Shown here: positions 1 to 28,723 of the stretch, piece after piece
How positions within the stretch are numbered: position 1 is the first letter of the stretch
How the letters are laid out: every line of letters starts with the position of its first letter
Source: Mobula hypostoma
Taxonomy: Eukaryota
Length of the DNA: 64,000 nt
Direction of reading: 5' to 3'
Assembly (NCBI RefSeq): GCF_963921235.1
Contig: NC_086097.1
Span: forward strand, 50,098,001 to 50,162,000
Made by a program: the position numbers and the translations under genes
The notes under the pieces: generated by a model
What the model was told of the DNA's origin: nothing
Seen by the model: the letters and a program-made list of their open reading frames with translations, nothing else
Database searches by the model: none

Positions 1-175
1 AGCTGTATCAGTCTCTGCCATTCCTTTAGGTTCATCAGATGCGTGGAGAGGGGGAGCTTGTTACATGGGCAACAGCCTGCTCTCCATATCATACTGCCCA
101 AGCTTGCATATCTAAATGGCTAGGACGCAATATCCGTGGTTAACTCCGACCGATGGAGACCTCAGATAGACAGAT
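1..175 (+). mobile_element. 3' part of a non-autonomous RTE-like retroelement, same family as 25421-26015
   Basis: Matches the reverse complement of ~25430-25600; ends in a short gata/gaca tail. Confidence 0.7.
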
Positions 176-7202: not shown

Positions 7203-8712
7203 CTTTATACTTTATACTTTATTGTCACCAGACAATTGATACTAGAACGTACAATCATCACAGCGATATTTGATTCTGCGCTTCCCACTCCCTAGAGTAC
7301 AGATCGATAGTAAATATTAAAAATTTAAATTATAAATCATAAATAGAAAATGGAAAGTAAGGTTGTGCAAAAAAAACCGAGAGGCAGGTCCAGATATTTG
7401 GAGGGTACAGCCCAGATCCGGGTTAGGATCCGTTCAGCAGTCTTATCACAGTTGGAAAGAAGCTGTTCCCAAATCTGGCCGTATGAGTTTTCAAGCTCCT
7501 GAGCCTTCTCCCGGAGGGAAGAGGGACGAAAAGTGTGTTGGCTGGGTGGGTCATGTCCTTGATATCCTGGCAGCACTGCTCTGACAGCATGCGGTGTAAA
7601 GTGAGTCCAAGAACGGAAGAATAGTTTGTGTGATGTGCTGCGCTGTGTTCACAATCTTCTGAAGTTTCTTCCGGTCTTGGACAGGACAACTTCCATACCA
7701 GGTTGTGATGCATTCTACGGTGCATCTATAAAAATTAGTGAGGGTTTTAGGGGACGGGCCAAATTTCTTTAGTTTTCTTGGGAAGTAAAGGCGCTGGTGT
7801 GCCTTCTCGGCAGTGGATTCTGCTTGTTTGGACCAAGTCAGGTCATTTGTGATATTGACCCCAAGGAACTTAAAGCTTTCGACCTGTTCCACTTGCGCAC
7901 CACCGATGTAAATTGGGTCGTGCGGTCCGCTACTCCTTCTGAAGTCAACAACCAATTCCTTCGTCTTGCTGATGTTGAGGGATAGGTTATTGTCTTCGCA
8001 CCATGCCACCAGGTTCTTAATTTCCTCTCTGTACTCAAACTCATCATTACCCAAGATACAGCCTACAATTGTTGTGTCATCAGCAAACTTATATATTGAG
8101 TCGATGGAAACTTGGCTACACAATCATGGGTGTACAGTGAGTACAGCAGGGGGCTGAGTACACAGCCTTGTGGGGCACCATTGCTCAGAGTGATTGTAGA
8201 GGAAGTTTGTCCCCTATTTTTACAGCCTGGGTCCTGTCTGTGAGGAAGTTGAAGATCCAGCTGCAGATCTGAGTGCTAAGTCCCAGGTTCCAGAGCTTAG
8301 GAATCAGTTTATTTGGAATGATGGTATTAAAGGCAGAGCTGTAGTCAATGAAAAGGAGCCTTACGTATACGTCTTTATTCTCCAGGTGTTCTAAGGAGGA
8401 ATATAGAGCCAGAGAGATGGCATCTGCCGTTGACCTGTTGCTCTGGTAGGCAAATTGCAAAGCATCAGGGTTGACCGGTAGGCTGTGGTTGATGTGTGCC
8501 ATAACCAATTGCTCAAAGCACTTCATAGCAATTGATGTCAGAGCCACAGGTCGATAGTCATTCAGGCATGCCACCTTGCTCTTCTTCGGCACCGGGATTA
8601 TCGTTGCCTTCTTAAAACACGAGGGGATCTTAGACTGAAGCAAGGAGCAGTTGAAGATGTCAGCAAACACTCCAGCTAGCTCGTTTGCACAGGCCCGGCG
8701 AACCCGTCCTGA
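7203..8712 (-). mobile_element. 5'-truncated Rex1/Babar LINE, inserted into an older CR1-type fragment (~6760-7200 and 8713-8780)
   Basis: ORFs with [51 protein letters not shown] and KTKELVVDFRR; (ataaagt)n tail. Confidence 0.9.
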
Positions 8713-23720: not shown

Positions 23721-23757
23721 CGCTATGATTCTATGAATGGGATTGAGAGGAATAACA

Positions 23758-24365
23758 CGAGGGGTGATTGATAAGTTCGTGGCCTAAGGTAGAAGGAGTC
23801 AATTTTAGAAAAGTTAGCACATTTATTTTTCCTACATTTACACACTTAGTCCAGTAGTCATGGATCATACGGATCCCTTCTTTGTAGAAGTCAACATCTT
23901 GGACCTCCACAAGTGGTCCACAGCAGGGGTGATTGATAAGTTCGTGGCCTAAGGTGGAATAAGATGAGGAGAAACTTCAAATTTTCTGCATTTTCACTCA
24001 GAGTTGAACTGCACGTACATATAACAAGAGCTGTATAACTCATCTCCTTCTAGCTTAGGCCACTAACTTATCAATCACCCCTGCTGTGGACCACCTGGAG
24101 GTCCAAGATGCTCTCATTATATGCATGTGCAGTTCAACTCTCTGAGTGATAATGCAGAAAGTTTGAAGTTAATAACTCATCTCCTTCTACCCTAGGCCAC
24201 GAACTTATCAATCACCCCTGCTGCAGACCACTTCTACAAAGAAGGGATCCGTATTCTCCACGACCACTGGACTAAGTGTGTACATGTAGGAGGGGACTAT
24301 GTTGAAAAATAAATGTGCTATTGACTCCTCCTACCTTAGGCCATGAAATTATCAATCACCCCTCG
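23758..24365. mobile_element. Mariner-like MITE, quasi-palindromic, with five TIR copies
   Basis: TIR CGAGGGGTGATTGATAAGTTCGTGGCCTAAGGTAG at both ends; CA and TA flanks (TA TSD, one mutated); inserted in a CR1 3' tail. Confidence 0.88.
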
Positions 24366-25420
24366 TAAATCAGCCATGATAGAATAGTGGGGAAGACTCT
24401 GGGTTAAATGGCCTAATTCTGCTCCTGTGTCTTATGGTCTTAAGGTCTTTTGTACCTGAAACTTAAGATCCCGGGATCTATTTAATTGAAGAAAGAATCA
24501 AGAAATTTTATTACCATGTCGTAGTCCATGCAACTTTACATATAAAAGAAAGCATTTGAGTTACTCAGCACTCAAGTCACATAATGGACTTCAGAAAAGT
24601 TTCTGGAGCCAACAGATGGAGCTTGGAATTTTTTTGTCCAGTAAAACTGTGATGACTGAATTCTTGCATATATTCAAAGATGAGCTAGTCTTTTCATCTT
24701 GTTGGAGGAACCTAGGAATACGGAGATGGGCAGGAAAATGGACCAGGGAAGTTGACTCATCCATGATCTTACAGTGGGGGGAAAAAAGGGGGTTAAGAGG
24801 GAAAAAAAATAGCCATGGTTGAATGGTGGGGCAGATTTTATGGGCCAAATGGACTAATATTGCTCCTATATTTTATGGTCTTATGAAAAATGCTCAAGAC
24901 GCTGAATTGCCTCTATTCCTATTATAGTCATAGTACATTTACACATAAATTTATTTTTATTTCATATTTTTCTGTAATATTTCAACAACTGTTTTCGGCA
25001 TTACTCTTGCAGTTTTATGCTAGCATTTAAGTTATTCATCTGAAGTAATTTCTATGGGAATTTTAGCAGATATACTAATCTATTTTAAAATATACTTGCA
25101 GTGGTATAAGACACTGGTGAAGCTTCACCTGGATTATTGTGCACAGATTTGGTCACCTTGTTATAGGAAAGATATCATTAAGCTAAAAAGATGGCAAAGA
25201 AGATTTACAAGGATGTTACCAAGTCTCAAGGGAGACTGAGTAGATAACTTTATAGAGATGTATAAAATTATGAGGGGCCTAGATAGGGTGAAGATACAGT
25301 TTTTTTTACCAAGGTACAGTGGTGTTTATATGAAACAATCTGTCAGAAAGCAGTTAAGTCAGGTTCAATAACAACATTTTTTTAAAAACGGATGAAATAG
25401 ATGGTTCGGAAGTATATGTC

Positions 25421-26015
25421 GTGAGGTGAGGTGAGGGCTGCCGTTGGTCAGAGTTAACCATGTATATAGTATCCAAGCTGTCCAGATATGCAAGCCTGGG
25501 CAGTACGATATGGAGAGCAAGCTGTTGCCCATGTAGCAAGCTCCCCCTCTCCACACATCTGATGAACCTAAAGGAACGGCAGAGACCAATCGAGTCTGGT
25601 ACCAGCAGCATTGCAGCAGTTGCCAGTAAGCATTGAACACAATGTAGGGCTGCCTTGGGGATTCCAGCTCCAGATTTTTCCCTTGGGAGTCTACTCCGGG
25701 AGTCTACTCCGGAAGCCTTCCCCATGAGTGTGTAAAGCCGCAAGGTAGTGGAGGTTTGAGATCAGTGTTTTCCTTCTCCTCTATAAGCTGACAACCACAG
25801 CTGACAAGCCCCATCTGCCCGGTGACTGGTTTTAAGGCGCTAGTAACCTACCTTTTCCCCTTCTCCTGTCTGTAGAAACAGTTCCGCCGGGCTTAGTAGC
25901 TAAGCCACACATGAAGGCCAGGAGCAGGATTTGATTATTAGAGGCTAAAATTGAGGTGCCCACCATTGGGAGTATCTAATAACTTGTCCGGTTACCACCC
26001 CTGACTATCATAACC
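25421..26015 (-). mobile_element. Non-autonomous RTE-like retroelement (~600 bp) inserted in a CR1 3' fragment (~25090-26110)
   Basis: Minus-strand GGAGAAGGAAAACACTGATCTCAAACC motif recalled from RTE 5' regions; (cctca)n tail; second copy at 1-175. Confidence 0.65.
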
Positions 26016-26179
26016 TTAATGTAAGTGCTAAACAAGGACAAATGGGACTTGCTTAAGTGGGCACTCTGCGTTTGGCTGAAGAGCCTGTTTCCATGCTGTT
26101 TTACTTTATGACCCGTTCAAACGATGGCTCATGACTTTGATGTTAGCAAGACATCAGCTGGGTTAGGCCATATAGTGTC

Positions 26180-26989: not shown

Positions 26990-28058
26990 TTAGAACATTA
27001 AAGAGTACAGCATAGGAACAGGCCATGTGGCACATTCTGTTGTGCCGAGCCAGCTAAAAAGCAAATCAAATACACCCAAACACTAATCCCTCCTACCTAC
27101 ACCATGTCCATATCCCTCCATCTTCCTTATATCCATGTGCCTATCCAAGCATCTCTTAAAAGCTTCTAATGTATTCGCCTTTACCAACATACTAGGCAAT
27201 TCATTCCAGACATCCACGACTGAGTAAAAAAACTTAGACCTCACATCCACCTTGAACCTACCCCCTGTCACCTTCAATGCATGCCCAATGGTATTAGCCA
27301 TTTCAATCCTGGGAAACAGATACTCTCAGTCCACTCTATGCCTCTCATAATCTTGTAAACCTCTATTAGATCTCACCTCAGCCTCTGACACTCTAGAGAA
27401 AACAATCCAGGTTTATCCGGCCTCTTGTGATAGCGCATACCCTCTAAACCAGACATCATTCTGGTAAACCTCTTCTGCACCCTCCCCAAAGCCTTAACAT
27501 CCTTCTTATTGTGGGGTGACCATAACTGTATGTAATATTCCAGATGTGTCATAACCAGAGTTTTATAAAGTTACAACATAACCCCCTGACTTTTAAACTC
27601 AAAAGCAAGCATTCCTTAAGCTTTCCTAACATCTTATCGACCTGTGCAGCTACTTTCAAGGAGCAAAGAAGTTGGATCACTGGTCAGCAGCACTTTTTAC
27701 TGAACATCTGGTTTTACATTCCATGTTTTACCTTCTCTCATACTTAGACATTTTGCAGCAGGGGACTCTTTCAGAACATGTTTAATAAATATCCCATCCT
27801 TTTCTCCACCTCCAACAATGACCCTGCCCTTAACAGTGTACTGTCTCCTTGCATTTGCCCTCCCAAGGTGCAACACTTCACATTTGTCTGGGTTAAAATC
27901 CATCTGCCATTTCTCAGCCCATATCTGCAACTGATCTATATCGTGCTGTATTCTTTGCCAGTCTTCTACACCATCCACAACCCCACCGATCTTGGTATCA
28001 TTCGCGAATTTACTAACCCACCCATCTACATTTTCATCCAGCCCATTTATACACATTA
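26990..28058 (-). mobile_element. CR1 3' portion containing the captured AHNAK2 exon fragment
   Basis: ORF 27697-28056 (WVSKFANDTKIGG...KWQMDFNPDKCEVLHLG); CR1 sequence resumes after ~27665 (SLKVAAQVD) and runs to the tail near 26990. Confidence 0.9.
27691..27820 (-). pseudogene. Partial duplicate of the AHNAK2 PDZ exon 3' half plus its donor and ~40 nt of intron, embedded in a CR1
   Basis: Aligns by eye with 28527-28655 at about 90% identity; encodes GGEKDGIFIKHVLKESPAAKCLSMREG. Confidence 0.92.
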
Positions 28059-28566
28059 TAAATAAACCTTATTTTATATGTAAAATAAAGAAATCTTTTA
28101 ATGATAAAACTTATATTACTATTATTAAAACTGTTTTCTGTACATCCATATTTCTAATGTTCCCCTGTCCATAATTTCACAATAACTGATGTTGGATTGG
28201 CTGGTTGAAACAACAGATTTCACAATCATACTTGAGAATGATTCTAACTCTGAAAAGTGCCGTGGCAGAAGCCGTCAATGGTACCACCCATTTTGAATAG
28301 TGGGATGCATTGATGTTGATGTTTACTTAGGGTGAATTTTTCAGAGCTGGGAGTGTACACACGGTTTTCCAGCAGAAGGTGAACTTTGTATCTGGAGCCA
28401 ATGGCAAACTGGTTGAATAACCCTGAAAGAAATTAAACTTTTCTGTACTGCACATCTAAATACTAATATGTAGTCCATAAACTGTTGGAAGAACACTTGG
28501 GTTCTTCTGGTGGTGAACGTTAATAACATTTTTACTAAACGGCTGGTTTTACATTCCATATTTTAC

Positions 28567-28723
28567 CTTCTCTCATGCTTAGACGTTTTGCAGCAGGGGA
28601 CTCTTTCAGAACGTGCTTAATAAATATCCCATCCTTTTCTCCACCTCTAACACTGAAGCCACTTGCACCTTTTTCAACATCTGTGTTCACAACCACTTCC
28701 ACAATATCCTCTTGTTTTACTTC
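28567..28723 (-). CDS. AHNAK2: AHNAK2 PDZ domain, first half: EVKQEDIVEVVVNTDVEKGASGFSVRGGEKDGIFIKHVLKESPAAKRLSMRE(G)
   Basis: Acceptor tttcttctag and donor gtaaaa; 157 nt, phase 0 to 1; AHNAK/periaxin-type PDZ motifs GASGFSV.GG..GIF and SPAAK.LS..EG. Confidence 0.95.

Follow-up and report, generated by a model that had tools for sequence, protein, structure and literature searches.

The minus strand at positions 25432–26019 of the window, i.e., the whole 64,000-nt stretch of DNA analyzed here, raises the question of whether an HDV-like ribozyme once headed this locus and, if so, where its fold would accommodate an additional hairpin. The first-pass annotation had proposed a decayed ribozyme of this kind at the 5' end of an RTE-like element. 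The letters it named were all found in place: CTCCTG (25924–25919), GCC, TTCATGTGT, GGC, TTAG-CTA-CTAA, CCCGGC and GG, then CAGA (25872–25869) and CAGGAG (25868–25863), as well as GTCAGG (26005–26000). P2 and the P3 it had chosen pair perfectly in this copy, and its P1 contains one G-U pair and one mismatch, as claimed. The folding energy of the window copy was at chance level (z of 0.13; 105 of 200 shuffles were as stable), and no HDV-type Rfam model matched in the window or in eight loci. Since the window copy alone is indistinguishable from shuffled sequences and has no Rfam match, the HDV-like reading is carried by its repeat family and by relatives of that family; through these, an HDV-like fold with an extra hairpin was borne out. 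A strict HDV descriptor, run over 611,082 nt plus a control, yielded two matches (L016 and window positions 8553–8645) and none in the control. The match at 8553–8645 (plus strand), with a weak P1 and a 12-nt L3, is probably due to chance.

The locus represents one decayed member of a non-coding repeat family of 590 nt, termed family A. It comprises family bases 7–590, followed by a short CCTCA-type tail, and is 85.5% identical to the family consensus. Searches of the 3.48-Gb genome returned 3088 and 5315 first-look candidates, with 40 scored each time, and family A has thousands of candidate copies. After removal of 4 duplicates from 60 loci, 56 copies were aligned, among which the pairs L004/L005 and L048/L054 have common flanks and do not count as independent; as copies were chosen by similarity to 5' queries, truncated copies are under-sampled. 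GGTTCC forms the start of the family, and a short, variable tail of repeats its end. It shows target-site duplications and has no coding capacity; none of 391 candidates matched in a protein search with its longest frame. Mean non-CpG divergence was 7.7% in 49 near-complete copies, a low estimate because the copies are best matches. Exact matches to the hairpin-bearing core numbered at least 29.

The predicted ribozyme of family A takes up its first 172 nt, with a 6-bp P1, a structured J1/2 of 104 nt, a CPEB3-type L3 and P1.1, and no P4. P1 is formed by family bases 1–6 (GGUUCC) and GGAACC, which lies six bases downstream of the P1' of the first-pass annotation and pairs with them perfectly; bases 1–6 are its best partner, without an equal among the first 110 bases. 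For HDV-like ribozymes, a P1 of at least 6 bp and a purine at the cut site are described (PMC8495972, PMC11331408). Both are present in the family consensus and in four other lineages, in which the pairing covaries. In the unconstrained fold of the CpG-restored consensus, pair probabilities were 0.73–0.82 for P1, 0.63–0.77 for the helix closing J1/2 and 0.95–1.0 for the hairpin, the latter also for the hairpin of the window copy. The folding energy of the consensus was not significant (z of −1.2; 23 of 200 shuffles were equally good).

The 5' ends of the copies agree with a predicted cut before the first base of the family, and not about 10 nt inside the element as had been proposed. The alignment starts at bases 1–3 in 35 of the 56 copies, at bases 4–13 in 20 and at base 38 in one. 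Target-site duplications adjoin G1 in 8 of 12 testable copies, compared to a control rate of 0.11. In addition, among the matches listed from contigs of three DNA runs of other organisms, the best-supported loose ends flanked by unrelated sequence fall at L042 1713–1716 (G1 at 1714), no more than two bases from G1. Starts at base 1 would also be expected from an internal promoter.

Projected onto the window (all on the minus strand), the 5' strand of P1 would be expected at 26020–26025, where it is missing. J1/2 is closed by a P1.2-like helix of family bases 11–18 (26008–26015) and 95–102 (25933–25940), both strands of which are decayed in the window copy. The P1 strand of the first-pass annotation, GTCAGG (26000–26005; alternative partner 25891–25886), lies inside the J1/2 helix in the family. 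The 5' strands of P2 (CUCCUG, 25919–25924) and P3 (GCC, 25916–25918) are followed by the L3 core (25909–25915), which reads UUCACGU in the family, as in CPEB3, and UUCAUGU in the window copy owing to CpG decay at the C24 equivalent. A 20-nt insert (25889–25908) completes L3; it consists of GU, a 7-bp hairpin GGCUUAG-CUA-CUAAGCC (25906–25890) and C. P3' (GGC, 25886–25888) is contiguous with P1' (25880–25885), which is GGAACC in the family and GGAACU in the window copy. J1/4 (GU, 25878–25879) provides a CPEB3-type P1.1 of one C-G pair and U·U, where GG had been proposed. A 5-nt link (25873–25877) stands in place of P4, and the P4 that had been suggested, AAC-T-GTT, cannot form with its 1-nt loop. 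J4/2 (25869–25872) is CUGA in the family and CAGA in the window copy, with the putative catalytic C at 25872, and P2' (CAGGAG, 25863–25868) closes the core.

Thus, the elements follow the nested double-pseudoknot order, with P2, a 3-bp P3 and P3' directly adjoining P1'. The L3 pattern U..CG and the P1.1 of C-G and U·U are likewise present. With its hairpin, L3 of family A reaches 27 nt, outside the 7–8 nt of CPEB3 and HDV. J4/2 conforms to C-N-R-A, its second base being U and not the purine of the CRRA descriptor. Among family A copies, P2 is paired in 325 of 336 cells and P3 in 131 of 168 (CpG decay), while the first C of J4/2 is kept in 54 of 56 copies and the A in 55. A lower mutation rate in the core (3.4% vs. 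8.3% among copies) and a core identity to locus L112 of 31/32 were discarded, both being artefacts of the way in which the sequences had been retrieved.

The window copy lacks a mismatch-free partner for P1' within 600 nt upstream, since even the best candidates contain a mismatch. Together with the C24-to-U change, this makes it very probably inactive: the copy appears to be a fossil that lost the 5' strand of P1, in keeping with the decay that had been claimed for it. No target-site duplication was evident around it. It sits between two minus-strand exons, one of which matches PDZ, and by this position it is intronic and in sense orientation to the PDZ-exon gene, as had been proposed. Further repeats were observed in the window. 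Positions 11–164 (plus strand) hold a second partial copy of the 3' part of the element (86% identical), which the edge of the window may have truncated. A 128-nt segment comprising the PDZ exon and its downstream edge is duplicated (92%; 27694–27821 and 28529–28656), the duplicate lying about 800 nt away within another repeat. The 610-nt region at 23757–24366, with long inverted repeats, resembles a decayed DNA transposon. Outside the window, the copy in L014 (2023–2240) has its 3' end followed by its own inverted duplicate; miRNA Rfam matches there were spurious and arose from this fold-back.

Relatives of the family were obtained by a metagenome scan for the core that allowed 0–30 extra L3 bases and gave 18 loci. 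Eight are homologous to the 5' region of the element (71–74% over longer alignments; two only in short pieces), and these relatives come from marine metagenomes. The other ten were chance matches, nine of them GC-rich; both matches of a viral scan were likewise due to chance. All eight relatives have a short L3 (7 nt; 9 nt in L088) followed by GGC, P1' and GU, and this GU had not been required by the scan pattern. In L112 and the relatives, the search patterns themselves prescribed P2, P3, L3 and the C, so that the conservation of these features there is not independent. A P1 partner was present 102–105 nt upstream of P2 in four of the eight relatives, compared to 104 nt in family A. None was in range in the other four (L097 is cut by a contig end, L101 is rearranged, L088 and L096 are unexplained). 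The P1 pairs are GGUUCC/GGAACC in family A, AGUUCC/GGAACU in L112, GGUUCU/AGAACU in L094, AGUUCA/UGAACU in L099 and GGCUCC/GGAGCU in L102, with a chance of 0.007–0.022 for each covarying pairing. Two-sided changes affect two pairs (L094, L099, L102), P1 of L085 contains a mismatch, and L102 additionally shows covariation in the helix that closes J1/2. Covariation was thus seen in the P1 of the form GGUUCC/GGAACC; none was seen in P2 or P3.

The origin of the fold is indicated by L112, a locus found in a search for the hairpin-less core. It is 73% identical to family bases 2–531, lacks the 20 nt and carries a ribozyme with the L3 UUCACGU. L112 runs on into a broken endonuclease, which is 73% identical to a 1045-aa endonuclease-RT-C2H2 protein; its best relatives are endonuclease-RT proteins of about 1045 aa, some of which are named craniofacial development protein 2-like. 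About 20 genomic matches cover both the L112-type UTR and the endonuclease. Judging by its architecture, we take this coding family to be an RTE (BovB-like). Since the L112 leader is homologous and continues into an endonuclease, the RTE label proposed for the element holds for its 5' part. The last 60 nt of family A had no match among the autonomous elements and LINE ends compared, nor did blastn with about 55 nt of the presumed 3' end of one copy give any. On this sequence evidence, family A is best explained as an abbreviated, non-autonomous offshoot of an RTE-type LINE. An earlier R4/Dong-derived reading was overturned by L112, and DUF6451-type RTEs and R4/Rex6-like elements of the same genome were rejected as parents because they have no sequence in common with the element.

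Several observations concern neighbouring elements. The same ribozyme and leader are found on endonuclease-type RTE elements (L112, L099, L094); the endonuclease in L099 is presumed from a motif that computational checks did not confirm. They also head elements with an RT, a zinc knuckle and a restriction-like motif (L097 110–4146, L102 53–4090 and L096), the best PDB match of which is an R2 protein. L102 and L096 adjoin TAA repeats and are presumably R4/Dong-like. This distribution suggests that the ribozyme module was swapped between LINE clades. L094 (3238–3656) and L101 hold a short element in which the canonical ribozyme occurs together with a leader hairpin of the RTE type and a tail of repeats; by visual comparison, its final 19 nt are similar to the family A end. 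The DUF6451-type RTEs (L077–L084; G000:C36:131.599–131.602 Mb) form a different family, one copy of which has a 1018-aa open frame. Their 5' end is sharply defined, and their leader is structured and conserved and may contain a pseudoknot; this leader is not HDV-like by the descriptor and has no Rfam match. Decayed R4/Rex6-like elements (L103–L108; 79 matches in the genome) have 3' ends unlike that of family A.

Compared to the parent and the relatives, family A has 20 extra bases, which are most stably read as GU, the 7-bp hairpin and C within L3. The L3 of the RTE-type parent family with the common 5' UTR is a simple loop of 7 nt, which places the gain of the hairpin at a later stage. At least eight hairpin-less matches were found, five in copies of the coding family, two with a 9-nt L3 and one of another form. 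Another version of the hairpin occurred in 5 of the 100 matches listed out of 143 variant matches. This version, family B, has at least 117 exact matches in genome G000, 100 of which were listed. Its hairpin is GGCAUAG-UUC-UUAUGCC and differs from that of family A by one pair switched from U-A to A-U, one G-C replaced by G·U and a new loop, with all seven pairs kept. Downstream follow GGC, P1' GGAGCU, GU and the link UCUCA, and the J4/2 C is kept in 96 of the 100 listed matches (counted by eye). The 5' end of family B is predicted to be (G/A)GCUCC. Although this covariation amounts to one two-sided change, i.e., one event between two families, the change suggests a selected helix in a working core. 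An intermediate between both hairpin versions was noticed in L110 (1519–1535), and L113, which spans the full body, has an L3 of 9 nt and lacks the hairpin, representing either an older stage or a deletion.

The hairpin-bearing ancestor probably self-cleaved at G1. Master copies would be transcribed by read-through from host genes, and the read-through RNA would fold into the double pseudoknot, with the first C of J4/2 as putative general acid, following HDV chemistry (PMC8495972, PMC6326823). Cleavage just before G1 would set the 5' end of new insertions and free the template for the RTE protein, while the 7-bp hairpin, which arose on the 3' side of L3, would have been tolerated and kept as a helix by a presumably still active ribozyme. 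More tentatively, and with somewhat less than even confidence, the families may represent an HDV-like ribozyme that is active and accommodates peripheral domains at a third site: non-autonomous elements would have acquired a helix in the catalytic L3, and selection would have kept it in two families. Such a helix may block dimerization of the CPEB3-type loop through its ACGU palindrome or, via the GCCGGG/CCCGGC pairing created by the insert, act as a folding switch.

It is unlikely, yet the most serious alternative, that the fold was merely inherited from the RTE parent, that the L3 insert crippled or killed catalysis, and that the elements spread by means of an internal promoter or protection of the RNA 5' end. 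Active-site residues reside in L3 (PMC6326823), trypanosome Pr77 is described as promoter and ribozyme at once, and in R2 templates the HDV fold is reported to help through its structure and not necessarily through activity (PMC11331408); all core features are intact in only 4 of the 56 family A copies. However, P3', GU and the C are preserved in both families with a hairpin although loop, L4 and P1' changed, starts pile up at G1, and decay of single copies is expected after insertion. With P1 as assigned here, it is very improbable that P3 pairs with the first GGC; L3 would then have 9 nt, and a linker of 18 nt would separate P3' from P1', much as in the topology first proposed. The alignment gap can slide, a 9-nt L3 without hairpin occurs in two genomic matches and in L088, and the covarying hairpin pair fits both registers, but the first-GGC register forfeits three G-C pairs (hairpin duplex of −9.0 vs. 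+0.3 kcal/mol). Furthermore, GCC-C-GGC, an idle linker in that register, is common to families A and B despite their different loops, and P1' is immediately downstream of P3 in known ribozymes as described (PMC3774820). The 11-nt hairpin and the linker placed between P3' and P1' by the first-pass annotation give way to a 7-bp hairpin (GGCTTAG/CTAAGCC) inside L3, which takes up the GGC assigned to P3'. The original fold (P1 GCCGGG/CCCGGC, P1.1 GG and a cut some 20 nt into the element) is hardly credible: its P1 is also perfect after CpG restoration, with six Watson-Crick pairs and a stronger duplex (−11.6 vs. −8.0 kcal/mol), so that other data are needed to separate the two, and none of the 56 copies starts at bases 18–24, i.e., near base 21, which by the criterion given in the first-pass annotation itself refutes this P1, its pair probability is 0.00 in the unconstrained fold (a method without pseudoknots), its layer energy is −34 to −37 vs. 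−50 kcal/mol, and the relatives and the parent keep the GCC-GGG run, in the relatives within the J1/2 helix, with no CCCGGC partner. As a perfect duplex after CpG restoration, GCCGGG/CCCGGC stays as a possible alternative pairing beside the P1 of bases 1–6.

HDV-like ribozymes are known from the 5' ends of R2, R4/Dong, RTE, baggins and L1Tc elements (PMC6765202, PMC5786205). Family A shares with them the fold order, the predicted cut at the first base and a long structured J1/2. P4 is described as dispensable in non-LTR ribozymes and absent in silkmoth R2 (PMC3774820), and family A also has none; it differs from their published descriptions by the 27-nt L3 with its 7-bp hairpin. Minimal HDV-like (theta) ribozymes likewise lack P4, but are described as short, phage-borne and tRNA-linked (PMC10879173). 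CPEB3 has the same L3 (U20 U21 C22 A23 C24 G25 U26) and J1/4 (G37 U38), the same P1.1 of one C-G pair and U·U, and its catalytic C, putative in family A, is also the first base of J4/2 (bioRxiv 10.1101/2022.09.22.508989, PMC9901934). In contrast to family A, it is described with a 7-nt L3, a short J1/2 and a P4, outside mobile repeat families. Extensions of HDV-like ribozymes have been published for J1/2 and P4. An L3 helix was not found in any HDV-like ribozyme in the parts of the literature available; the predicted folds of Webb 2009, Ruminski 2011, and Webb and Luptak 2011 could include one. RTE elements and their short derivatives are therefore known carriers of HDV-like ribozymes, and the hairpin in L3, which was not found described there, appears to be new. 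If a selected L3 helix holds true, the known tolerance of the fold is wider and offers a new place to graft domains, while descriptor and Rfam searches undercount these ribozymes and standard descriptors miss the whole class. Non-autonomous elements headed by a ribozyme include R2 SIDEs, NARTc/SIDER and bipartite RTEs such as RTE-N2_Lch (PMC3414825, PMC4035085, PMC5786205). Like these, family A is short and non-coding and retains the 5' UTR and ribozyme of its parent. Unlike in these, the structure of its ribozyme differs from that of the parent; parent and derivative form a natural pair with and without the hairpin in one genome, so that the effect of the hairpin is directly testable.
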